Origin: a bacterium
GTDB taxonomy: Bacteria; Patescibacteriota; Dojkabacteria; JAKAPS01
DNA: 64,000 nucleotides
Assembly: GCA_021806925.1 (NCBI GenBank)
Contig: JAKAPS010000001.1
Coordinates: forward strand, 1,237-65,236
Reading direction: 5' to 3'
The notes under the pieces are model-generated. The model made no database searches, had not been told where the DNA came from, and saw only the letters and a list, made by a program, of their open reading frames with translations. This document shows positions 51,051 to 63,688 of the stretch, piece by piece. Position 1 is the stretch's first letter. Every line of letters begins with the position of its first letter. The position numbers were made by a program, and so were the translations under genes.

Positions 51051-52778
51051 ATGTATATAAAGGATGTTATAAAAGATGCTAAGCAATATGCCAGGCATCT
51101 TGGAAAAATGCGAGTTAGCCCAAATATTCTTCTTTTTGCAATGTTGAAAGATAAAAAAATAGAAGCTGATTTCGTAATTAACAATTCAAATATAAATTTT
51201 TTAAAATATATACTTAATCCGAATGTTCTAAAAACAACAAATTCTCCTAGAAACATTCAGCTTTCAACTTCTCTTCAGCGTATTGTATCAGGATATAAGA
51301 GGAGTGACTCGGCATATGATCTGTTTATACGTCTACACAATGAGAAATACATACGGGATATATTAAGTATTGCTGATTATTCATATAAACAGAATGAGGA
51401 TTTGTATGGTTTTTTCATAAAAAAATATTGTAACAAATTACAGACAGGTAAAGTACTTGATAAGCAAGTTCCTGTATATAGGAAAATGCTTAGGGCATCA
51501 AAGCACCATAATATATCTCTAATAACTTCAAGCGGAAATATGTCGAGCGAAGTCATAAAAAATTTTGCAAAATATGTTGATAAAAAGAGTACAATATTTT
51601 CATTTGATTTATTCAAATTACTTTCTGAGTCTGAGGGCAGTCTATTTTCTATTGTAAGCGGAATATTTAGTGAGATTGATAACAACTATATATATATCCC
51701 TAATTTTCTACAGACAGTGTATTGGATTAAGGCACTCAACTACAAGGACCTATATATGTTGCTTCTTACAAAATCAAAACAATGTAAAATAATAACTAAA
51801 GTATCAAGAAATAGACTTGATAGAGATATTTATGCTGAAGGGAATATAATGAATATGTTCTTTATAAATTCACCACAAGTAACTTTTAATGAATTAAGGG
51901 ATATATTATGCGAAAAGGCAAAAGAGTATGAACTATTCTATGACATCAATATAACATCAAAGGAAATTGATGATGCAATAAAATCAAGTATTGAGTTTTC
52001 AAAATATTTATCCCAACCAGCAAGTTCGATTAAAATGCTTTCAAGAACTGCACTGATTAAATATTCTAATGAGGAAGAAAAGTTTAATATAGATCACAAC
52101 AATGATAATATACAGAACAATGTAAATAAATTATTAAAATTAAAAACAATTCTTCTTGATAATATAATTGGACAAAATCAACAAATAGATAGCTTTGTAG
52201 AATCCTTGGGAAAGGCTAATCTTAACAATGATAATATGATTCTATTGAATTACATATTTGAAGGAGAGTATGGCGTTGGTAAATTCACTTTAGCCAGATT
52301 AACTGCTAACTTCCTTTTTGGTCAGGACTCTATATGTTTTATTGATTTAAGTAATTATGCTAAGACACCATACAAATATAAGTTTGAATATGATTTAAAG
52401 AGAACATTAGAGAGTTTTTATGGTGGAATAATATATTTAGAAAACTTTGATCAAATTGATATGGATGAGATAAATCCGTTAGAATTAATAAAGAAATTAT
52501 TAAAAGAAATACCTCAAAGTTCATATATTCTTGGATGTATTGTTATTGCATCGATTCATAATAATCTACAGAATTTAAAGAATAGTATAAGTATAATCAA
52601 CAACTTCGATAAAATAATAATATTCAATAAATTATCAATTCGAGATCTAGAGAAAATATCTGTAATGGAAACTGTTAAATCAAAGAAATATATAAAAACA
52701 GTTCGTAACCCTCTATTTCTTTCTGTAAATGCAGAGATTAACAATGCACATGATATAAAGGCAATGACACTTAAATAA
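51051..52778 (+). CDS. ClpB/ClpA-like protein with Clp_N-like N-terminus and a degenerate (probably inactive) AAA+ module
   Basis: Clp_N-like AKQYARHLGKMRVSPNILLFAML. D2-like DNIIGQNQQIDSFVESLGKA with Walker A GEYGVGKFT (Thr changed to Phe), Walker B IIYLENFD (DE changed to EN) and an SRC-like region. Confidence 0.45.
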   Translation: MYIKDVIKDAKQYARHLGKMRVSPNILLFAMLKDKKIEADFVINNSNINFLKYILNPNVLKTTNSPRNIQLSTSLQRIVSGYKRSDSAYDLFIRLHNEKYIRDILSIADYSYKQNEDLYGFFIKKYCNKLQTGKVLDKQVPVYRKMLRASKHHNISLITSSGNMSSEVIKNFAKYVDKKSTIFSFDLFKLLSESEGSLFSIVSGIFSEIDNNYIYIPNFLQTVYWIKALNYKDLYMLLLTKSKQCKIITKVSRNRLDRDIYAEGNIMNMFFINSPQVTFNELRDILCEKAKEYELFYDINITSKEIDDAIKSSIEFSKYLSQPASSIKMLSRTALIKYSNEEEKFNIDHNNDNIQNNVNKLLKLKTILLDNIIGQNQQIDSFVESLGKANLNNDNMILLNYIFEGEYGVGKFTLARLTANFLFGQDSICFIDLSNYAKTPYKYKFEYDLKRTLESFYGGIIYLENFDQIDMDEINPLELIKKLLKEIPQSSYILGCIVIASIHNNLQNLKNSISIINNFDKIIIFNKLSIRDLEKISVMETVKSKKYIKTVRNPLFLSVNAEINNAHDIKAMTLK

Positions 52779-52882: not shown

Positions 52883-54457
52883 ATGAAACAGCATGTTGTT
52901 CCACAGAATATTATGAGTGTGGAATTTAAAATCATTGGGGATTTGACTATTCATCAGTTTGTATATATTGCAATCGCTGGTGGTATATGTTTTGTTCTTT
53001 ATGTTGCCTATCTGCCAGGAATAATAAAATGGATGTTAATTATCATTGTAGGATTCATAGGAATACTTGTTGCATTAGCGAAGGTTAACGAAAGACCATT
53101 TGATGTTTGGATAAGCAATTTTATAGTTGCTATTCTATTACCTACAGAACGTGTATGGAAGAAGGAATATACTATCCCAGATTTTCTAGTATCACAAAAA
53201 AAACTCGATTCATTGAAGCCAATTAAAATTGATCAAAGGAATTCATACAAAAAACTTAATAATTATCTCCATTCAATCAACATGCAAACTGATGCAATTA
53301 GTAGATACAATACTAAAATGGATATTGAAGAGATAAAATTTCTTAACTCTATAAAAGATACAATTGACGGATTAAATAAAAAAGAAACTATTGCTGAAAA
53401 AAACAATTCAGCAATACTACCTATCAGTGCAAATATATATACAAATCCTGCTGGTGCTAAAATAAATGATAGCAATGTGCTGAGTAATAATCCAATCAAT
53501 GATACGAATACAGAATCTAGCAATGAAGAGAAAATAAAAAATATTGTACCAACGGAATCGGCATCTACATTACAAGAGGAATCTAACGAAAATGATACTA
53601 CAAACAATATAGCGTTAGATGAAGACAAGCATAATGCTGTTGGAATAGATAAACATGATATTAATTCTGTTGGTTCAGACAATTTTGATATTAATGCTGT
53701 TGGTTCATACAATATTGATATTAAAGACATTATTACTAATTTAACACAGAAAGATGATACAAATTCAGATAGAAATAACATAGCAGTGGATAATTCTATT
53801 GGAGATGATTCTAATAAATTAGCAGATTTACCTCCAATAGATATTAATACCTTGCTGACTGAAAGAAAGGATTATGATACCAAAAGCGATAAAAATGATA
53901 GGTTATTAAAAGTTGAAGAAGAAAAGATTGAGAATTTAGAGATTGAAAATAAGATTCTTAAAGAGGAAATTGAAAATATAAAGAAAACAATTGGTAATAA
54001 GACAGAAAGTATAGCTAAACAAAATGAACAAGTCCAACCTAGTAAACAAGAGGATACTGATATAAAGACTCTAGATAAAGTAAATACACCTGAGAATGAA
54101 GGTGAAAGTTTAGTTGCATCAAGTGAAGAGCTAAATAAAGCAATAGGATATATGCCTGATTATACAAAGCTACCTAATATAATTTATGGAGTTGTTCTTG
54201 ATACACAACTGAAGCCAATTACAGATGTTGTAGTAATAATAAAAAATAATAAAAACGGTAATATAATTAGAGCATTAAAAACAAACTTTCTTGGACAATT
54301 TTATTCACGTACACCTTTGCAAAATGGAGAATATATAATTGAAGCAAACAAGGAAGGAATTGTTTTTATTCCTACAAGTATTATAATTGATTCAGATAGA
54401 ATAAAACCTATCATTATAAAACCACAATCAGTGAATGAAGATATTAAATTAATATAA
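52883..54457 (+). CDS. PrgI-like (VirB3-analog) membrane domain fused to a long Asn/Asp-rich and coiled-coil region with a C-terminal beta-sandwich (CarboxypepD_reg-like) domain
   Basis: The N-terminus (SVEFKIIGDLTIHQFVYIAIAGG...ALAKVNERPFDVWISNFIVAIL) matches the PrgI family pattern (two TM helices plus the NGRPF-like motif). Heptad-like EEKIENLEIENKILKEEIENIKK and VVLDTQLKPITDVVVIIKNNKNGNIIRALKTNFLGQFY also occur. Confidence 0.5.
   Translation: MKQHVVPQNIMSVEFKIIGDLTIHQFVYIAIAGGICFVLYVAYLPGIIKWMLIIIVGFIGILVALAKVNERPFDVWISNFIVAILLPTERVWKKEYTIPDFLVSQKKLDSLKPIKIDQRNSYKKLNNYLHSINMQTDAISRYNTKMDIEEIKFLNSIKDTIDGLNKKETIAEKNNSAILPISANIYTNPAGAKINDSNVLSNNPINDTNTESSNEEKIKNIVPTESASTLQEESNENDTTNNIALDEDKHNAVGIDKHDINSVGSDNFDINAVGSYNIDIKDIITNLTQKDDTNSDRNNIAVDNSIGDDSNKLADLPPIDINTLLTERKDYDTKSDKNDRLLKVEEEKIENLEIENKILKEEIENIKKTIGNKTESIAKQNEQVQPSKQEDTDIKTLDKVNTPENEGESLVASSEELNKAIGYMPDYTKLPNIIYGVVLDTQLKPITDVVVIIKNNKNGNIIRALKTNFLGQFYSRTPLQNGEYIIEANKEGIVFIPTSIIIDSDRIKPIIIKPQSVNEDIKLI
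53633..53722 (+). repeat. 3 x 30-bp in-frame tandem repeat (encodes NAVGIDKHDI / NSVGSDNFDI / NAVGSYNIDI)
   Basis: AATGCTGTTGG(A/T)..GATATT units, read directly. Confidence 0.75.
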
Positions 54458-54485: not shown

Positions 54486-55190
54486 ATGAAGAACCAAACA
54501 CATGCTTCAACACAAAGTCATCTTGATATAGAGGATATAAGGGATGATTTAGTTATTTTGAAAAATGGGAAAGTTGATCTTGTGCTTGAAACTACAGCAA
54601 TCAATTTCTCTCTTCTTTCAGAGATGGAACAGGATGCAAGAATAAATGGATTTGCTGGATTACTCAATTCATTGAATTTCCCATTACAAGTGTTTATACA
54701 CACTGAAAGTGTTGACATAACAAAGTACATTGCGAAAATTAAAGAATATAAGAAAAATGCAAAAAATGAAAAAATTGCATTACAAATTGATTATTATCTT
54801 GATTTTATTAAAGGATTAATTGAGAAAAATGAGGTGTTAGATAAAAGGTTTTTCTTAATAATTCCCTATTATCCAGAAACTTTAAAGAAAACAAACCCGA
54901 TAAAAACAGCCATGGGTAAAGAAGAGAGAATATTAAATATTGATGGATTGATTGAGAAAGCAAAAATTGAATTAATACAAAGGAAGGATACATTAATCAA
55001 ATTATTGCTTAGAATGGGGTTAAGAACAAAGCAACTAACAACCGAAGACCTTATAAATCTTTTCTATAAGCTATATAACAGTGACTCAATATCACTTAAT
55101 ACAATAAAATCACCAAAGGAGGATTTTCTTGCACCAATAGTATCTTCAGAGGTTGACTTTATATCTACAAATCCAAATGAAATAAATTAA
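54486..55190 (+). CDS. Protein resembling the N-terminal domain of VirB4/TraC-family ATPases (stand-alone)
   Basis: IEDIRDDLVILKNGKVDLVLETTAINFSLLSEMEQDARINGF follows the VirB4 N-terminal consensus (dG.l..v.e..g.nf.L.seeeq). There is no ATPase motif. Confidence 0.4.
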   Translation: MKNQTHASTQSHLDIEDIRDDLVILKNGKVDLVLETTAINFSLLSEMEQDARINGFAGLLNSLNFPLQVFIHTESVDITKYIAKIKEYKKNAKNEKIALQIDYYLDFIKGLIEKNEVLDKRFFLIIPYYPETLKKTNPIKTAMGKEERILNIDGLIEKAKIELIQRKDTLIKLLLRMGLRTKQLTTEDLINLFYKLYNSDSISLNTIKSPKEDFLAPIVSSEVDFISTNPNEIN

Positions 55191-55193
55191 AAT

Positions 55194-57188
55194 ATGAGCC
55201 AAGATGATACTAAAAACATTACATCACCTATAGTTAATAGTCCTGTAAAACCTACAACTAATAATAAAAAAAGTAATAAAGTACCTTTTATTGGAGCTAT
55301 CTCAGACATTATTGACATTGCAAGATTCTTCTTTTTTTCGCAAGGAAAATCAGATAACTCAGAGGTAATGATATCAAAAGAAGTATCTGAATTTAGTGAC
55401 GGAATTGTTACAGTTAGAGATATATTAGCTCCATCTTCTATTGAAGTAGATTTTGACTACATAAAAATTAATCAGAAATATTATAGAACATATTTTGCGG
55501 CGCTATTTCCTAGGTTTGTAAATGCAAATTGGCTTGCTCCATTAATAAACTTTGAAAGAACTATTGATATATCGATGTACTACTTTACTGTAGATTCAAG
55601 AGAAGTTATGCTCAAATTAAGGAGAAAAATTGCTGAAATGGAAGCAACATTGAATACACTTAATGAGCAAGGGAAAGTTCTTGATCCTAATGTAAAAGTT
55701 GCCTTAGAGGACGCAAACCTATTACAGGAGCAACTTGCGAAAGGTGAAGAGAAATTTTTTCACTTCTCTGTTTATATAACAATTCAAACTGACACTGAAG
55801 ATGAATTAAATAAATTTGGGAAGGAACTTGAAACTGTATTAAGTGCAAGCGGATTAATTATAAAATCTGCATACTTACAACAAGAATTTGCATTTCAATC
55901 AGTAATCCCTACAAATAATGATAAACTTATGGTTGTCAGAAATATGGATACTACATCAATAGCAACCACATTTCCTTTTATTTCATCAGATCTTTCCTCT
56001 GATTCAGGAATTTTATATGGAATAAATAAATATAACAAAGGATTAGTAATTTATGATAGGTTTTCAAATGAAAACTATAATACTGTAATTTTTGCTCGTT
56101 CTGGGGCAGGTAAAAGTTATTTAGCAAAACTTGAGGCACTACGCTCTTTAATGCTTGGTGTTGAGGTCATTATAATAGACCCTGAAAGAGAATATGAAAA
56201 GCTATGTACTGTTGTAGGAGGAAGTTACCTGTCATTTTCCCAGGATGGTGCAAGTAAAATAAATCCGTTTGACCTATCAGGAATATATGATACAGATGAA
56301 GATGAACTGAGATTTAAAATACTATCTCTTCATGGACTATTCCGTATCATTCTCGGGAATGGTAATAATGAGCAGTTAACTGCTATTGAAAGTGCTGTAC
56401 TAGATAAAGCAATAATAAACACGTATAGAGAAAAAGGAATTACAACTGATCCATTAACACAGAAGAAGGAGCCCCCTGTTCTTCAAGACTTATATAAGGT
56501 TCTTCTATCTATGGAAGAAAATGAATCTCAATCCCTTGCGAAAAGACTTGAGAAATTTATTACAGGTAGTGCTTCAGGTATTTTTGATAAAAAAACAAAT
56601 ATAGAAATAAACAATGAGTTCACAGTATTCTCAATTAGAGACCTTTCTGAAGAATTAAGACCTGCAGCAATGTATCTTATGCTTGATTACATTTGGACAA
56701 AAGTAAAAAAGAAAAAAAAGAAAAGGATACTTATGATTGATGAAGCATGGATATTGATGAAATATCCAGATAGCGCCCAATTTATAAATGGATTAGCCAA
56801 GAGGGCAAGAAAGTACTACCTTGGAGTAACAACCATAACTCAAGATGTAGAAGATTTCTTTGCTACAGATTATGGAAAGGCTGTTGTTAATAACGCTGCA
56901 ATGCAGATACTTCTAAAACAAAGCCCAAGTGCAATAAACAATATTCAAAAAGTATTCTTTCTTTCTGATGGTGAAAAAGATCTACTACTCAATTCAGCTC
57001 CAGGTGAGGGTTTGTTTTTTGCAGGAGCAAATCATGTTGCAATAACTATTAAGGCTAGTGAATATGAGCACAACTTAATAACAAGCAACCCACAGGATAT
57101 AATAAATCAAGAAAAAGAAGCTTTGAAAAATGAATATAAGAATTCGCAACAGCTGAATAATGGAACAATATCAAGAAGAGCAAACTAA
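55194..57188 (+). CDS. VirB4/TrbE/PrgJ-family ATPase (T4SS or Ced-type translocation ATPase)
   Basis: N-terminal domain with SDGIVTVRDILAPSSIEVDFDYIKIN...FHFSVYITIQ. Walker A FARSGAGKSYLAKL, Walker B ILMIDEAW and ITQDVEDFF. Confidence 0.8.
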   Translation: MSQDDTKNITSPIVNSPVKPTTNNKKSNKVPFIGAISDIIDIARFFFFSQGKSDNSEVMISKEVSEFSDGIVTVRDILAPSSIEVDFDYIKINQKYYRTYFAALFPRFVNANWLAPLINFERTIDISMYYFTVDSREVMLKLRRKIAEMEATLNTLNEQGKVLDPNVKVALEDANLLQEQLAKGEEKFFHFSVYITIQTDTEDELNKFGKELETVLSASGLIIKSAYLQQEFAFQSVIPTNNDKLMVVRNMDTTSIATTFPFISSDLSSDSGILYGINKYNKGLVIYDRFSNENYNTVIFARSGAGKSYLAKLEALRSLMLGVEVIIIDPEREYEKLCTVVGGSYLSFSQDGASKINPFDLSGIYDTDEDELRFKILSLHGLFRIILGNGNNEQLTAIESAVLDKAIINTYREKGITTDPLTQKKEPPVLQDLYKVLLSMEENESQSLAKRLEKFITGSASGIFDKKTNIEINNEFTVFSIRDLSEELRPAAMYLMLDYIWTKVKKKKKKRILMIDEAWILMKYPDSAQFINGLAKRARKYYLGVTTITQDVEDFFATDYGKAVVNNAAMQILLKQSPSAINNIQKVFFLSDGEKDLLLNSAPGEGLFFAGANHVAITIKASEYEHNLITSNPQDIINQEKEALKNEYKNSQQLNNGTISRRAN

Positions 57189-57416
57189 TATATATTCAAT
57201 TCTAAATTACTCTTTACAATGGATTTATTGATTCTGTCAAGCAATTAACTATTAATTCCATGAATAATAGATTCAGTACAAGCTTTTTATTCAAAAAAAG
57301 TAATCCTAGAAAAATATAATTAAAATTATCCTTATATACCCTGGTAAAATGAAATAGATTGCAAAAATAAATTTATTAATATAAACTTCCGCTAGAACAA
57401 AATAGAAAGGAAAAAA

Positions 57417-57698
57417 ATGAAAAATATATTTTTCCTTTCCCCAATAGTAGTGTATGCATCTGTATACACAATTCCCCAGCTGCAAAGTACTGTGAACAAC
57501 ATTACAGATACACTTTCATGGATTATTGGAAGTTGTATCGTGTTATTGATAACAAATTTTGGAATTCAATTTATTCTATCATCTGATAATCCGCAAGAAA
57601 GGGCTAAACTAAAGACTAAAATTGTTTGGTCAATAATCGGCCTATTCATAGTTATTTTTGCAAAAGATATATCTATATGGATACAAAATATTATATAA
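57417..57698 (+). CDS. VirB2/TrbC-like pilin candidate (small two-helix membrane protein)
   Basis: 93 aa: signal-like N-terminus, a hydrophobic helix, a short polar loop (SSDNPQERAKLKTK) and a second helix. It sits immediately after the VirB4-like gene. Confidence 0.35.
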   Translation: MKNIFFLSPIVVYASVYTIPQLQSTVNNITDTLSWIIGSCIVLLITNFGIQFILSSDNPQERAKLKTKIVWSIIGLFIVIFAKDISIWIQNII

Positions 57699-58756
57699 CA
57701 ACACAATTAAAGCAATTTGGAATTCTTATAAAGCTTATAGAAATAATAATTGTAATAATTATAACTACTGTTTACTACAACAATTCAAATATATTAAAGA
57801 ATAACTCATCAATAGCTTCTACACATATAAATAAGGCGACTAGTGCCACGTTAGTGGGTACTGGTCGTATTGGATCTGGAGCAATTTCAAGCACATGCTA
57901 TACAAGTTACTCAATTAATGTCTTAAGTGATGCTCTGGAGTTTTTAACATGTCAATTTAACAATATATTTGGAGAGTATGTGTTTTCCACTGAGAATTTA
58001 TTTAATAATAGTGAATTCACTATATTTGAATCAAATATACAGAATATGGCTCTATATTTAATTCCACTTGCAATAATTATTGTTACCTCAATTGAATTGC
58101 TAAAATATGTTGAAGGAAAAGGAGATAGCATTGTAAGCATCCTTTACGAATTTATATTAAATGTAATTTTAATAATAATCTTACCTAAAATATTTTCTTT
58201 GCTTATAGATTTCACAAATTCAATATCAAATTACTTCTCAAGTATTTCATTTAACAAAAGCACATCACTTGCTTCAAGTATTAATTCTGTATTTTTCGAG
58301 CAGAATTCATCAATACCAGGAATTGCACTTGATATACTTTGGATTTTCTTATTCTCTGCCATATTATTCATAACTGTATTCTTTCTATTCAGATTCATAT
58401 TTATATACTTGTCATATTCAGTTATCCTACTATTAATACCTTTTATAAATATAAAAATTGTTAAGAATTTGTTACTTTCAATTAGCGAAAAAACTATTCA
58501 ATTTATTCTAATTCAACCGATATTTATATTAAGCGTTAACTTCTTCCTGTTTATAGTAAAAACAAGCTCACTAAATGTTAACAGTATAATATTTACTTTA
58601 GCCCTTGTTTTATCTCTGTCATTTATACCAGTATATTTTACAGGATTAACAGTTTCAAGGTTCTCAAGCATATCAAATTCTAAAATTAGAGGTGCAGTAA
58701 GAGGCAGTATTGTTAGATTGGATATGATTGCTAACGATATAATTAAATCTCTATGA
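57677..58756 (+). CDS. VirB6/TrbL/CedA-like polytopic membrane protein
   Basis: One N-terminal TM, an external loop of about 100 aa, then at least five TM helices. The start is set at the internal Met (track start 57626). Confidence 0.45.
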   Translation: MDTKYYITTQLKQFGILIKLIEIIIVIIITTVYYNNSNILKNNSSIASTHINKATSATLVGTGRIGSGAISSTCYTSYSINVLSDALEFLTCQFNNIFGEYVFSTENLFNNSEFTIFESNIQNMALYLIPLAIIIVTSIELLKYVEGKGDSIVSILYEFILNVILIIILPKIFSLLIDFTNSISNYFSSISFNKSTSLASSINSVFFEQNSSIPGIALDILWIFLFSAILFITVFFLFRFIFIYLSYSVILLLIPFINIKIVKNLLLSISEKTIQFILIQPIFILSVNFFLFIVKTSSLNVNSIIFTLALVLSLSFIPVYFTGLTVSRFSSISNSKIRGAVRGSIVRLDMIANDIIKSL

Positions 58757-58968
58757 ATTATAGAATTCAAATTCTTATTGCAATAATTATTTTAGGATTA
58801 CTTGCACAAGATATTTTTATTAGGATTTTAGTATTAATATCATGCATGTTTTATTTAACAACTGTTATTCGTTATAGAGCCAAATTACTTATATCCTATA
58901 TACCAGTCATTCTTATGTTTTTATTTAGAAGAAAAATATATGTTAAAAAATATAGAAGAGATATTTAA
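58753..58968 (+). CDS. Small two-TM membrane protein
   Basis: 71 aa, overlaps the upstream gene by 4 nt. Confidence 0.3.
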   Translation: MNYRIQILIAIIILGLLAQDIFIRILVLISCMFYLTTVIRYRAKLLISYIPVILMFLFRRKIYVKKYRRDI

Positions 58969-59368
58969 TATAAAACAGATTAATGCAAATGATGTACTTT
59001 TCAAGGATAATTCTCATTGCTATATATATAAAATAAGGAATGTTGAAAACGAGATGCTACTAAAGTTTCTTAAAATGACAACTAAAGAGGCTACAATATA
59101 TTTTTTTAAGGAAAACTATATATTCGACACATACATTGAAAAATTGCTTGATAACAATCTAAATGAAAGGCATCTTGGATTTCTTCTTCAATATATTTCA
59201 TACTTGAATAAGACGAATATACAGGGACTTGAGATCTTTTTACTTGTTAAGCAGGATAATGGTTCAGTCAACTCAATTGATGAATATATATATAAATTGA
59301 GAATAGATATACAGAAGACAGATACAAAAACAACACACGACTTCTTTGTAAAATTGTTATGCAATTAA
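58940..59368 (+). CDS. Hypothetical protein immediately upstream of the second VirB4-family ATPase
   Basis: 142 aa, soluble. Confidence 0.3.
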   Translation: MLKNIEEIFNIKQINANDVLFKDNSHCYIYKIRNVENEMLLKFLKMTTKEATIYFFKENYIFDTYIEKLLDNNLNERHLGFLLQYISYLNKTNIQGLEIFLLVKQDNGSVNSIDEYIYKLRIDIQKTDTKTTHDFFVKLLCN

Positions 59369-60606
59369 CATATAAAATATATAAAGACATATCATCATTT
59401 TTCAAATTTATAGGAATAGTTAGAAGAGAAAAGAGAACAAGCGTTGAATTATATAAAATTGATACACCTACTTTGATATTAAAAGAATATTTTGACAGGA
59501 TAGTTATAAATTCGCAGAGCTATTATCAATTCTTAATAATTCCACGGGATGAATCTATTGATAATATTATTAATGATTTAATTAATTATTCATTTAAAAA
59601 TATCAAGTTGAACATCACATTGTATAATTCGTCAGAAATTAATAGAAAGATCATAAAAAATATAAATAAAATAAGAGAAGATGTTATTACTGGAAATGAG
59701 GAGCTTGAGGTAGCTAAATTCAACATTGAAGACAAATTTAATCAAGTAAAGGAATATAGAAAAAATGATATTGTATTTTCAGTAAACATTGTATTAACAA
59801 AAAATGAAAAAACTTCATCCTTTGCAAATCTAATAAAATCTAAATATGGTGCAAATTCATACCAAATATATTTTACAAACATACAAAACTTTAGAAAAGT
59901 TATTGAAAGTAATCATAATGACTCACTAACACAATACCCAATTCTTTTAAATAAATCATACTTCTATAAATCAGGAATATATCTTGGTAATAATATTAAA
60001 GTTAATACCCCTATATTTCTAGATATATTCTCAATGCAGAATTACAACATGATTGTATTAGCTCGTTCTGGTGCTGGAAAGACTACTCTTGCAAAAGAAA
60101 TTATTATCAGAGAAATTTTCAACGGTGTGAAAATATTTTGTATTGACCCAGAAAATGAATATACAAAATTGAAAGATATATTTGATGAAAAATTCTTTGA
60201 AATTATTGAAGACGTTTCATACTTCTTAGATAATATAGAAAAGGAATCTAAAGGTAAGACACTTATATTTATTGATGAAGCACATAAGTATTTAGATGAT
60301 AAAAACATATCAAAGAAGATTAGACACGTTATAAAGACTGGAAGGAAATATAACATTGGAGTAGTGTTAATTACCCAAGATGTAATTGATTTTTTACAGA
60401 ATAGAAATACTAAAACTGCAATTCTAAATTCTGGATGTATATTCCTTCTAAAACAACATGAGTATATCGCCACACTCCTTGGAAAGGTTTTTGGACTAAG
60501 TAGCGATGACTTAAATTTTCTTATTCATTCAAATCTTTCTGAGGTCCTTATAAAATCTGACTATACTAACGAGTACATGTCATTTAGTAAACTATTTGAT
60601 GTATAA
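59359..60606 (+). CDS. Second VirB4-family ATPase paralog (short form)
   Basis: Walker A VLARSGAGKTTLAKEI, IFCIDPENEY, Walker B LIFIDEAHKY and LITQDVIDFL, all parallel to the ORF at 55194. Confidence 0.7.
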   Translation: MQLTYKIYKDISSFFKFIGIVRREKRTSVELYKIDTPTLILKEYFDRIVINSQSYYQFLIIPRDESIDNIINDLINYSFKNIKLNITLYNSSEINRKIIKNINKIREDVITGNEELEVAKFNIEDKFNQVKEYRKNDIVFSVNIVLTKNEKTSSFANLIKSKYGANSYQIYFTNIQNFRKVIESNHNDSLTQYPILLNKSYFYKSGIYLGNNIKVNTPIFLDIFSMQNYNMIVLARSGAGKTTLAKEIIIREIFNGVKIFCIDPENEYTKLKDIFDEKFFEIIEDVSYFLDNIEKESKGKTLIFIDEAHKYLDDKNISKKIRHVIKTGRKYNIGVVLITQDVIDFLQNRNTKTAILNSGCIFLLKQHEYIATLLGKVFGLSSDDLNFLIHSNLSEVLIKSDYTNEYMSFSKLFDV

Positions 60607-62695: not shown

Positions 62696-63688
62696 TTAGA
62701 ATACTAACAATGATATTCCTACTCCAAATGCAATTGTTGCCCCACCTACTAAAATATAGTATGGTAGACTGAAACCAGTATTTGGCAATGTTCCACCAAC
62801 TGATATTGAAATAGTACAAGGTGAAGATAATGTATCACCATTAGCATCGGTTACACCTGCTAGTGAAATTGTGTATGTTTGACCTGACGATGGTGTGAAC
62901 GTTACTGAAGAATTAGATGTACCGCTAGGAACAAGTGTTGTAGATGTTGGACTAACACTCCATACTGCATTTGTATAACTTATAGGAGAGGATGAGCTTG
63001 ATGTGATTCCTGATTCAATAGTTAACTGAGAATTTGCCGCAACGCTAGACGCTGAAGTTAACGTATTCCCATTTTGTGATAATGTAAATTGGTTACAAGC
63101 AAGGGATGATACACTACCAGTTACCGATGGTGTAGGTGTGCCTGACGTTGTATTTGTAGGAGTAGCACTTATTGTTTGAGTTGTGGTTGGTGTTGTACTG
63201 GTAGTTGATGTTGCTACTGGTCCTGCGGTAGGCAAAAGACCTGATGTACACTGAGATGAATTCAAACTGCTTGTTACAACTATATTCCCCTTATTTCCTG
63301 ATTTATCTACTACATATATTGATGCGTTATATTCATCAGTTCCATTTGCACTACTAAATACGTATTGCCCCTGATTAGCAGGAACAGGTCCAAATGGAAT
63401 TGGCTGAGAACTTGAAGAACTCAAATCATTAATATCGCCCATCACACTGTATGAACTGGATGTTTGTGATGGAACAGACCATTCAACAGTTAGTGAATTA
63501 TTAGATGTAGATGATGAACAAACAATACTGTAAGAAGTCAGCTGAGGAATATTTGATGTATTCGCAGATTGAGAACTTTGGTTCTTTTTATTTAAATTTA
63601 AAATGTATACTGCTGATAATATACTTCCTAGTACAATAACAACAGCTACTACAGCAATAACTACAAAAAGAACTTTCTGATTTTTCAT
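62696..63688 (-). CDS. Ser/Thr-rich surface protein with C-terminal LPNTG-like motif and hydrophobic tail
   Basis: N-terminal signal/anchor, a TSTTSTTPTTTQTISATPT low-complexity region, and a C-terminal ...GGTLPNTGFSLPYYILVGGATIAFGVGISLLVF. Confidence 0.5.
   Translation of the reverse strand: MKNQKVLFVVIAVVAVVIVLGSILSAVYILNLNKKNQSSQSANTSNIPQLTSYSIVCSSSTSNNSLTVEWSVPSQTSSSYSVMGDINDLSSSSSQPIPFGPVPANQGQYVFSSANGTDEYNASIYVVDKSGNKGNIVVTSSLNSSQCTSGLLPTAGPVATSTTSTTPTTTQTISATPTNTTSGTPTPSVTGSVSSLACNQFTLSQNGNTLTSASSVAANSQLTIESGITSSSSSPISYTNAVWSVSPTSTTLVPSGTSNSSVTFTPSSGQTYTISLAGVTDANGDTLSSPCTISISVGGTLPNTGFSLPYYILVGGATIAFGVGISLLVF

Follow-up and report, generated by a model that had tools for sequence, protein, structure and literature searches.

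A second, divergent TrsD-like and VirB4-like gene pair in a Patescibacteria-type type IV secretion cluster

Gene content of the cluster

The 64,000-nt stretch of DNA analyzed here (the window) contains a chromosomal type IV secretion system (T4SS) cluster of the Patescibacteria type (MPF-FATA-derived), in a host with a tiny genome. All of its genes lie on the forward (+) strand, in the order PrgI/VirB3-like, TrsD/TraC-like, VirB4, VirB2-like pilin, polytopic (VirB6-like) protein, 71-aa membrane protein, divergent TrsD-like protein, and compact VirB4 paralogue. An earlier note had drawn attention to two small ORFs, each followed by a VirB4-family ATPase, and all four are present at its coordinates. 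The first pair consists of sm1, a TrsD/TraC-like protein (234 aa, 54486..55190), and B4a, a VirB4 ATPase (664 aa, 55194..57188). The second pair consists of sm2, a probably divergent, shortened TrsD/TraC-like protein (142 aa, 58940..59368), and B4b, a compact VirB4 paralogue that combines a VirB4-type N-terminal domain with a P-loop domain (415 aa, 59359..60606). Both ATPases belong to the family proposed for them, with Pfam P-loop_TraG scores of 94.7 bits for B4a and 48.5 bits for B4b (cut-off 25.8).

Upstream of the first pair is a PrgI-family (VirB3-like) membrane protein (524 aa, 52883..54457) that matches Pfam PrgI over residues 6-91 (E = 2.6e-8, 34.7 bits; cut-off 27). It has a C-terminal beta-sandwich extension, and residues 434-498 gave weak CarboxypepD_reg and NOMO-like matches. 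Immediately 5' of PrgI, a 575-aa protein (51051..52778) shows weak AAA-lid and AAA similarity (Pfam AAA_lid_9, E = 0.0016; AAA, E = 0.02; both under the cut-off). Its orthologues (E ~1e-96) occupy the matching position only in L004 and L084, the nearest relatives and the carriers of the second module. The protein is clade-specific, and it is uncertain whether it is part of the secretion system.

Three genes separate the two pairs, and each has orthologues in L004 and L084. The first encodes a VirB2-like T4SS pilin (93 aa, 57417..57698), identified by Pfam T4SS_pilin PF18895 (E = 8.2e-14, 51.9 bits; cut-off 26.6), with a weak TrbC match and an NCBIfam Mbov_0395 pilin-like match (E = 6.1e-8); its position is unchanged in both relatives. 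The second encodes a polytopic membrane protein (359 aa, 57677..58756, with the start taken from the public gene call; 376 aa if counted from the first TTG). This protein had no match in Pfam or NCBIfam, but several long hydrophobic stretches are evident in its translation and its orthologues (400 aa in L004 and 354 aa in L084) each follow the pilin gene; it is VirB6-like by position and topology only. The third encodes a small membrane protein with hydrophobic stretches (71 aa, 58753..58968; orthologues of 68 and 73 aa). Its start overlaps the upstream stop (ATGA), and its last 29 nt are shared with the beginning of sm2. Compared with a profile of the PrgI N-domain, it gave an hhalign E value of 0.17, and it is possibly a VirB3/PrgI-like partner of B4b.

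The first pair and its known counterparts

The first pair is the standard Patescibacteria arrangement, in which a PrgI/VirB3-like gene is followed by a TrsD/TraC-like gene and then by VirB4. The earlier note had regarded a small ORF in front of a VirB4 gene as undescribed. However, TrsD located 5' of a VirB4 homologue is already known from the pGO1 subclass of MPF-FATA systems, and the Patescibacteria TraC-like and VirB4 arrangement was published in 2025 in a survey that counted 2,474 VirB4 homologues in 2,417 assemblies (Quinonero-Coronel et al., PMC12102498). The Patescibacteria T4SSs in that study are likewise chromosomal, with a VirB2-like pilin and no relaxase nearby. The TrsD/TraD and TrsE/TraE proteins of pGO1, pSK41, and pIP501 share the same order: a VirB3-like protein (PrgI/TrsC), a TrsD-like protein of ~220 aa, and a short VirB4 of ~660 aa.

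The suggestion that the first small ORF resembles the N-terminal part of VirB4 was borne out. sm1 matches Pfam PF26593 ("TraC-like") and the TrsD model, and profile matches of the TraC-like family include Staphylococcus aureus TrsD and a 304-aa protein of pXO1. On NCBIfam VirB4_plasma, a Mycoplasma model of 894 positions, sm1 corresponds to positions 98-285 and B4a to positions 273-893. Coverage of long VirB4 proteins is complementary in general, with sm1 accounting for approximately the N-terminal 200 residues and B4a for the remainder (residues 72-612 of B4a align to 222-773 of a 796-aa Enterococcus long VirB4); the long VirB4 proteins CD1110/PrgJ and Mbov_0397 of the Mycoplasma ICE are covered end to end by sm1 and B4a together. 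sm1 is the equivalent, as a separate polypeptide, of the N-terminal subdomain that is covalently attached in the long VirB4 of monoderm systems. Among solved structures, the predicted structure of sm1 resembles only VirB4 (TrwK) from the inner-membrane complex of R388 (PDB 7o42 and 8rtd), at 10-15% identity and with no sequence-level PDB match; we assign this likeness to the TrwK N-terminal domain based on sequence-model coordinates.

B4a is a short-form VirB4, without the TrsD-like N-terminal subdomain. It exceeds the cut-off of NCBIfam conju_CD1110 (375.1 bits; cut-off 325) in an alignment of residues 63-617 to positions 176-734 of 752, and it also matches Pfam P-loop_TraG, AAA_10, and DUF87. 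Its top PDB sequence match is the C-terminal domain of Thermoanaerobacter VirB4 (4ag5, E = 1.2e-53).

In related Patescibacteria, VirB4 lies directly 3' of the TraC-like ORF in 78 of 80 genome loci, with varied junction geometry, and most of these loci have a PrgI-family homologue (phmmer) directly 5' of the TraC-like gene. Because of this recurrence, and because synteny of the second pair extends to two further genomes, the pairing of a small ORF with VirB4 is not chance. Split TraC-like and VirB4 genes also occur on plasmids (S. aureus pSK41-like, Loigolactobacillus backii, and pXO1). Natural TraC-like and VirB4 fusions exist as single ORFs of 786-804 aa in two Patescibacteria contigs (L117 and L138), and PrgI is fused with the TraC-like protein in Embleya. 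Both the split form and the fused form of VirB4 are known. The second pair is no recent tandem duplication: in a rough NJ tree, B4b never clusters with the first copy.

Conservation and identity of the second pair

The order pilin, VirB6-like protein, small membrane protein, second TrsD-like protein, and second VirB4-like protein was found in three genomes only (this one, L004, and L084/L085); neither the other 79 genome loci nor 80 metagenome VirB4 loci contain the second module. In all three genomes, the overlaps of the sm2 start and stop with neighboring genes are repeated, and every orthologue of the three second-module genes is an intact ORF.

Pairwise alignment gave different outcomes for the two halves of the module. 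B4a and B4b are similar (E = 6e-15 and 4e-12), with both the N-terminal and ATPase domains covered, whereas sm1 and sm2 show no significant similarity by BLASTP. Since database searches recovered no homologues of sm2, it has no direct Pfam or NCBIfam match, and its single-sequence AF2 model is of low confidence (pLDDT 45.8), we considered whether only the ATPase is present twice, with sm2 being either a small lineage-specific protein of unrelated origin or an ORF without function. However, sm2 has kept its position, its length (142 aa here and 151 aa in both L004 and L084), and its overlap with the ATPase start, despite only 18-23% identity among the syntenic orthologues. A profile of these three orthologues (A3) aligned with the TraC-like profile (A1) collinearly from the N-terminus over ~105 residues. 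The hhalign probability was 25% (E = 7.5e-4, score 30.9), for a profile built from three sequences only. None of 400 shuffled controls reached this score (maximum 27.4), and the reversed-sequence control reached 24.4. When A3 was compared with 58 real families, the two best were both families of small proteins encoded 5' of VirB4, and the 56 unrelated families scored lower.

Profile searches with A3 returned almost exclusively TraC-like proteins in two independent ORF sets. With hmmsearch, the best 8 non-self matches among 4,349 ORFs were all TraC-like, as were 10 of 11 matches among an independent 3,165 ORFs (best E = 2e-4), where the matching genes lie directly or shortly 5' of a VirB4 gene. 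Short TraC-like versions do exist, because locus L003 encodes a shortened, 152-aa TraC-like protein 5' of VirB4. At the profile level, these data suggest that sm2 is probably a divergent member of the TrsD/TraC-like family of sm1, and an unrelated origin for it is unlikely. The claim that the module is present twice is upheld to the same degree.

B4b is related to VirB4. In addition to P-loop_TraG, it matches Pfam AAA_10 (42.1 bits) and DUF87 (34.8 bits). Its match to NCBIfam VirB4_plasma (E = 3e-28) is under the cut-off of that model, and B4b likewise fails to reach the cut-off of any other curated NCBIfam VirB4 model. By BLASTP, B4b residues 45-285 correspond to B4a 87-351 and residues 295-397 to B4a 505-607. 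Residues 352-504 of B4a have no counterpart, so that in this genome B4b has lost ~150 residues from the interval between the Walker A and B motifs; this may point to reduced function. In the tree, B4b forms a long basal branch outside the Patescibacteria VirB4 clade. Given this placement, a true duplication is a candidate only, and the second pair may stem from an old duplication or from acquisition.

This long branch, the very fast evolution and shortening of B4b, and the rarity of the module would also fit a module in decay, left over from a second T4SS or an integrated mobile element and without present function. The B4b orthologues (522 aa in L004 and 479 aa in L084) are 31% identical, compared with roughly 75-85% (estimated by eye) for the first VirB4. 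Decay is nevertheless quite unlikely, as not only are the ORFs intact and their overlaps conserved, but the motifs SGAGK[ST], IDEAHK, GRK, and QD.IDF.QN are invariant in the three B4b orthologues, leaving Walker A and Walker B intact. In addition, no relaxase, integrase, or coupling protein was found near the second module, and the cluster is flanked by core genes (PcrA, RNase H, and holA) that are syntenic in relatives.

A second ATPase that is a distant relative of VirB4 is a normal component of conjugative T4SSs, which raises the question of whether B4b is a coupling protein (VirD4/TcpA-like) or a VirB11 substitute rather than a second VirB4. Coupling-protein homologues of Patescibacteria are rarely encoded near virB4 (PMC12102498), and none was found within the window. 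On the other hand, the top family matches of B4b are VirB4 models, and it matches no coupling-protein family. In its N-terminal half it can be aligned to the corresponding domain of B4a, and it has no N-terminal hydrophobic segment. These features exclude B4b from the coupling-protein family; they bear on membership and not on a coupling-type role. Overall, we consider this alternative very unlikely.

Gene junctions and a proposed role for two VirB4-type ATPases

The junctions of the two pairs differ. At the first, sm1 and B4a are in frame across a 3-nt gap, with one TAA between them (...AAT TAA AAT ATG...). At the second, sm2 and B4b overlap by 10 nt (ATGCAATTAA) in different frames. While the single in-frame stop and the fused ORFs of other Patescibacteria contigs could point to long VirB4 genes broken by a nonsense error (55188-55190) and a frameshift (59359-59368), such artefacts are highly improbable, as the same split recurs with varied geometry in the related loci, the first-pair ORFs of L004 and L084 overlap in different frames, annotated complete plasmids from cultured bacteria carry split forms, the second pair is split in all three genomes that have it, and the records of the NCBI, ENA, and Logan assemblies contain identical proteins.

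The arrangement of the first pair has thus already been described; what is new is a second, highly divergent TrsD-like and VirB4-like pair in the same cluster. Such a pair at the cluster end, seen in this window and its two relatives, is not described in PMC12102498. A parallel is the rvh T4SS of Rickettsiales, which similarly has two VirB4 paralogues, RvhB4-I and RvhB4-II, in one T4SS (Gillespie et al. 2015, PMC4676284). Like B4b, RvhB4-II is a much faster-evolving, lineage-conserved second paralogue, and the hosts are host-dependent, small-genome bacteria. In contrast to B4b, which keeps Walker A and B, RvhB4-II lacks conserved ATPase active-site residues, and its gene is far from the other genes, whereas B4b is encoded within the cluster with its own TrsD-like partner. 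The rvh system is also P-type, while the one described here belongs to the monoderm MPF-FATA type.

Based on homology, gene order, conservation, and motif integrity, we favor as probable a model in which the first pair is canonical and the second is a paralogous copy of the two-gene unit that acts in the same machine. sm1 and the short VirB4 B4a would form a non-covalent assembly, in which sm1 may help dock B4a at the membrane on PrgI, the VirB3-like protein; we infer this role because the sm1 gene lies between the PrgI and VirB4 genes and is fused to either in other lineages. The second pair would be a fast-evolving copy of this unit, preceded by a gene for a small membrane protein, that has been kept in a small clade with its catalytic motifs intact. 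B4b would then be an active second VirB4-type ATPase, which may form mixed VirB4 assemblies with B4a or may power a separate step, for example, pilus assembly as opposed to substrate transfer.

The T4SS cluster and its flanks

As the earlier note had observed, a small ORF followed by a VirB4-family ATPase occurs twice in the window, and all four ORFs were found where it had placed them. They lie in a single compact plus-strand cluster that runs from a PrgI-family gene to the second ATPase gene. The cluster encodes, in order, the PrgI-family protein (52883-54457, +); the small protein sm1 (54486-55190, +; 234 aa) and the ATPase B4a (55194-57188, +; 664 aa), which constitute pair 1; a T4SS pilin (57417-57698, +); a polytopic membrane protein (57677-58756, +); a 71-aa membrane protein (58753-58968, +); and the small ORF sm2 (58940-59368, +; 142 aa) and the ATPase B4b (59359-60606, +; 415 aa), which constitute pair 2. 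We refer to pair 2 together with the 71-aa protein as the second module.

The window is AT-rich, with a G+C content of ~29%. The cluster is flanked on one side by core genes encoding a UvrD/PcrA helicase and an ATP-grasp enzyme, and on the other by the core genes for RNase H, holA, RuvX, and alanyl-tRNA synthetase. Because of these flanks, and because the relatives we recovered were Patescibacteria (CPR) assemblies throughout, we regard the cluster as a chromosomal T4SS cluster of a Patescibacteria genome. A promoter and terminator scan of the region returned a number of sites not above chance. No coupling-protein homolog was found in the window by phmmer using the Embleya coupling protein as the query.

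At 524 aa, the PrgI/VirB3-like protein is longer than usual, with a low-complexity, Asn/Asp/Ser-rich middle and a CarboxypepD_reg/NOMO-like beta-sandwich at its C-terminus (residues 434-498). PrgI-family homologs at the same position in relatives range from 119 to 1,015 aa, and most are 250-650 aa. Directly upstream is a 575-aa protein (51051-52778, +) that weakly resembles the AAA-lid and AAA families and contains GVGKF, a Walker-A-like motif. Its orthologs were detected only in L004 and L084, the genomes that also carry the second module, and it may be a further clade-specific component. A 330-aa Ser/Thr-rich protein (62696-63688, -) has an N-terminal hydrophobic segment and ends with LPNTG and a hydrophobic stretch, which, judged from sequence, matches the pattern of surface proteins anchored by sortase.

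Pair 1 and the TraC-like domain

B4a scored 375.1 bits against the NCBIfam VirB4 model conju_CD1110, passing the curated cut-off of 325, and carries Walker A and B motifs (SGAGKS and MIDEAW), identifying it as a predicted VirB4 ATPase. It also matched the PDB sequence 4ag5 (E = 1.2e-53). The alignment of B4a to the CD1110 model begins only at model position 176, B4a covers positions 273-893 of the 894-position Mycoplasma-ICE VirB4 model (VirB4_plasma), and its alignment to a 796-aa long VirB4 from Enterococcus starts only at residue 222.

The sm1 gene sits between the VirB3-like (PrgI) and VirB4 genes. Pfam family PF26593, "TraC-like," is on record for this exact protein and for nearly all of its 419 homologs in a public protein collection. 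Against the NCBIfam TrsD model NF041427, sm1 aligned over positions 14-200 of 201 (E = 2.8e-7), with a score of 30.5 bits compared with a cut-off of 200. By these profiles, sm1 is a member of the broad PF26593 family and falls outside the narrow NCBIfam TrsD subfamily. It also aligned to positions 98-285 of VirB4_plasma (E = 1.2e-7, below the curated cut-off).

We built a TraC-like profile from 32 of the 419 homologs and compared it with candidate relatives using hhalign. The profile matched S. aureus TrsD (E = 3.1e-5, 171 columns), a 304-aa protein encoded between PrgI and VirB4 on pXO1 (E = 2e-9), and residues 66-207 of the Enterococcus long VirB4 (E = 0.02). When the TraC-like alignment was used as a profile against PDB sequences, there was no match. 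When modeled using AlphaFold, sm1 had a mean pLDDT of 74.9, with residues 13-200 ordered. The best 14 Foldseek matches to this model were TrwK chains, and the next ones had a probability <0.4. These results indicate that the modeled fold of sm1 is related to the N-terminal part of VirB4. We also considered whether the N-terminal domain of the short VirB4 could be a second copy of the TrsD-like fold; this idea was dropped, as hhalign with the TraC-like profile revealed no internal repeat in B4a or B4b.

At the junction of pair 1 (AAT TAA AAT ATG), sm1 and B4a are separated by a 3-nt gap and are in the same frame, with one stop codon between them. A single base change within 55188-55196 would restore a fused long VirB4 of the kind found in L117 and L138. 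The TraC-like profile recovered 80 Patescibacteria genome loci, and a VirB4 gene directly follows the TraC-like gene in 78 of them, usually with a PrgI-family homolog upstream. One of the remaining two loci stops at a contig edge; the only full-length related genome locus without a detected VirB4 ORF downstream of the TraC-like gene is L026 (2655-3395). The same PrgI, TraC-like, VirB4 gene order is also annotated on S. aureus pSK41-like and Loigolactobacillus plasmids. In the nearest relatives, the TraC-like and VirB4 ORFs overlap in different frames, and therefore the split is real even though it rests on one in-frame TAA here.

These findings agree with the description of Patescibacteria by Quinonero-Coronel et al. 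2025 (PMC12102498), and pair 1 is an already known, published feature of the Patescibacteria T4SS. In the one Patescibacteria species tested, Southlakia epibionticum, the T4SS is essential for epibiotic growth (PMC12102498). Of the earlier reading of a small ORF and a split or duplicated VirB4, the homology of sm1 to the VirB4 N-terminus holds, and both split and fused forms exist. Its proposal that the architecture is undescribed is wrong for pair 1, since the Patescibacteria arrangement is published (PMC12102498), and a sequencing frameshift is rejected by the 78 of 80 split loci and by the overlapping frames of the nearest relatives.

Fused forms occur in two Patescibacteria metagenome contigs, where the TraC-like and VirB4 sequences are in one ORF of 804 aa (L117, 6628-9042) or 786 aa (L138, 7783-10143). 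On an Embleya (Actinomycetota) plasmid, a TraC-like segment instead lies within the PrgI ORF, on its C-terminal side (L089, 1380-2432; residues 138-246, E ~1e-11). The Embleya "XF1762 family" protein gave no match to the TraC-like profile with hhalign. The TrsD-like domain can thus be free, joined to VirB4, or joined to PrgI, and this fusion/fission pattern supports its being a detachable N-terminal subdomain of VirB4 that bridges VirB3 and VirB4. In the window, sm1 would be this subdomain in detached form, linking the ATPase to the VirB3-like PrgI protein.

Pair 2 and its orthologs

B4b exceeded the Pfam cut-offs for P-loop_TraG (48.5 bits compared with 25.8), AAA_10 (42.1 compared with 27.5), and DUF87, and has a VirB4/TraG-type P-loop domain that carries both Walker motifs, A and B. 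BLASTP aligned B4b residues 45-285 with B4a residues 87-351 (28% identity, E = 6e-15), such that a VirB4-type N-terminal domain precedes the P-loop, and B4b residues 295-397 with B4a residues 505-607, the ATPase-domain portion that follows Walker B. Approximately 150 residues between Walker A and B (B4a 352-504) are missing from B4b. B4b also scored below the curated NCBIfam VirB4 cut-offs, the best being VirB4_plasma with 98 bits compared with 590. Given this score and the missing residues, B4b is a divergent paralog rather than a typical VirB4 member. In database searches, its nearest relatives were ordinary VirB4 proteins, with E values of 1e-20 or worse. We rejected the possibility that B4b is a type IV coupling protein (VirD4/TcpA), as it has no N-terminal hydrophobic segment and no coupling-family match; the sole coupling-type match in Pfam and NCBIfam was a marginal one to SXT_TraD (E = 0.0045).

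B4b starts 10 nt inside sm2 (ATGCAATTAA), in a different frame. The second module encodes proteins of 71, 142, and 415 aa (small membrane protein, small ORF, and ATPase, respectively) in the window, 68, 151, and 522 aa in L004 (JANWIC010000009), and 73, 151, and 479 aa in L084/L085. The small ORF lies directly upstream of the VirB4-family gene in the window, L004, and L084. In all three genomes, pilin and polytopic membrane protein genes are upstream of the module, and RNase H, a Wzz-like gene, and holA are downstream. The module was absent within 10 kb at the other 79 genome loci and from 80 metagenome VirB4 loci, and a metagenome scan for B4b relatives returned ordinary VirB4 loci only. Pair 2 is a rare, lineage-specific variant.

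The B4b orthologs from the three genomes are only 31% identical. Nevertheless, SGAGK[ST] (SGAGKT), IDEAHK, GRK, and QD.IDF.QN are invariant among them, and they differ in length only between Walker A and Walker B. This pattern of conservation indicates that B4b is probably under selection as an ATPase and is not decaying.

The sm2 protein had no Pfam or NCBIfam match, and word-indexed and exhaustive HMMER database searches returned only sm2 itself. The pairwise comparison of the two small ORFs called for by the earlier note gave no similarity by direct BLASTP, nor did that of the small ORFs with the ATPases. The syntenic orthologs of sm2 are 18-23% identical. As sequences were added to the sm2 profile, its E value against the TraC-like profile in hhalign went from 0.39 (one sequence) to 0.0079 (two) and 7.5e-4 (three), but the three-sequence match had a probability of only 25%. 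The alignments always begin at the N-terminal beta-hairpin motif.

We compared the three-sequence match with several controls. The real score of 30.9 exceeded those of 200 column shuffles (maximum 22.9) and 200 block shuffles (maximum 27.4), and the reversed alignment scored 24.4. In a panel of 58 real protein families from the compared loci, the sm2 profile best matched a 269-aa protein family whose genes immediately precede those of another VirB4 group (E = 0.0048 over 138 columns). The second-best match was the cluster containing TraC-like proteins, and the remaining 56 families scored ≤22.2. Using hmmsearch with the sm2 profile against 4,349 ORFs from the genome loci, the best eight non-self matches were all TraC-like and collinear over ~105 residues. 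Against an independent set of 3,165 ORFs taken from other loci, 10 of 11 matches were TraC-like proteins directly or shortly upstream of VirB4 (best E = 2e-4). Collectively, the shuffle, family-panel, and hmmsearch controls point to a TraC-like identity.

A shortened, 152-aa TraC-like protein upstream of VirB4 was also found in L003 (E = 1.7e-5). It belongs to a minimal cluster on an 844-kb JGI contig (7217-12328), composed of a TrbC pilin, a 558-aa protein with a weak TrbL/VirB6 match, the TraC-like protein, a 568-aa VirB4, and an M23 peptidase; its genes are ordered similarly to those in the second half of the window cluster. The single-sequence AF2 model of sm2 was unreliable (pLDDT 45.8), and a fold search with it gave no meaningful matches; the order of secondary structure elements predicted by this unreliable model is compatible with sm1 minus its long helix (residues 152-176). 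We consider it likely that sm2 is a divergent TrsD/TraC-like protein.

The 71-aa ORF had no Pfam match, and its hhalign comparison with a PrgI N-domain profile was not significant (E = 0.17). Only its size, hydrophobic stretches, and position fit PrgI/VirB3. The protein could be a minimal VirB3/PrgI-like partner, in which case the repeated unit would comprise three genes.

Origin and possible role of the second module

A B4b-family profile matched Patescibacteria VirB4 with E values of 1e-42 to 1e-55, compared with 1e-10 to 1e-31 for VirB4 from Firmicutes, Actinobacteria, and archaea. In a rough neighbor-joining tree, the three B4b sequences grouped together (92 of 100 replicates). Their branch is long and basal, a placement that is probably due to long-branch attraction. 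B4b joined the first VirB4 copy of the same genomes in none of the 100 replicates, so the second module did not arise by recent tandem duplication. It is either an old, fast-evolving paralog or was acquired from a source that has not been sampled.

Two VirB4 paralogs in one T4SS have their closest precedent in the rvh system of Rickettsiales, where RvhB4-II evolves fast, no longer has an ATPase active site, and is encoded at another genomic location (PMC4676284). Unlike RvhB4-II, B4b keeps its motifs and has its own TrsD-like partner. B4b probably serves the same machine as a second, active motor of the VirB4 type, and sm2 would play a role for B4b like that of sm1 for B4a. We think it rather unlikely that the 71-aa protein, the TrsD-like sm2, and B4b form a dedicated second energizing module, with the two VirB4 paralogs sharing labor. 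Were labor shared, the paralogs might take the "central" and "outer" positions of the VirB4 hexamer-of-dimers of R388, or one VirB4 might serve pilus assembly and the other substrate transfer, without a nearby coupling protein. Such a split would mean that VirB4 functions combined in one protein elsewhere are here naturally divided between two genes.

Since only a few uncultured genomes carry the second module, its practical impact is limited, and interest in pair 2 is modest until a role is shown. Pair 2 indicates that the whole two-gene unit, and not the ATPase alone, can exist as a divergent paralog within one cluster, which argues for co-evolution of TrsD and VirB4 as specific partners. 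It also provides a small natural system in which to ask why a T4SS uses two VirB4 populations.
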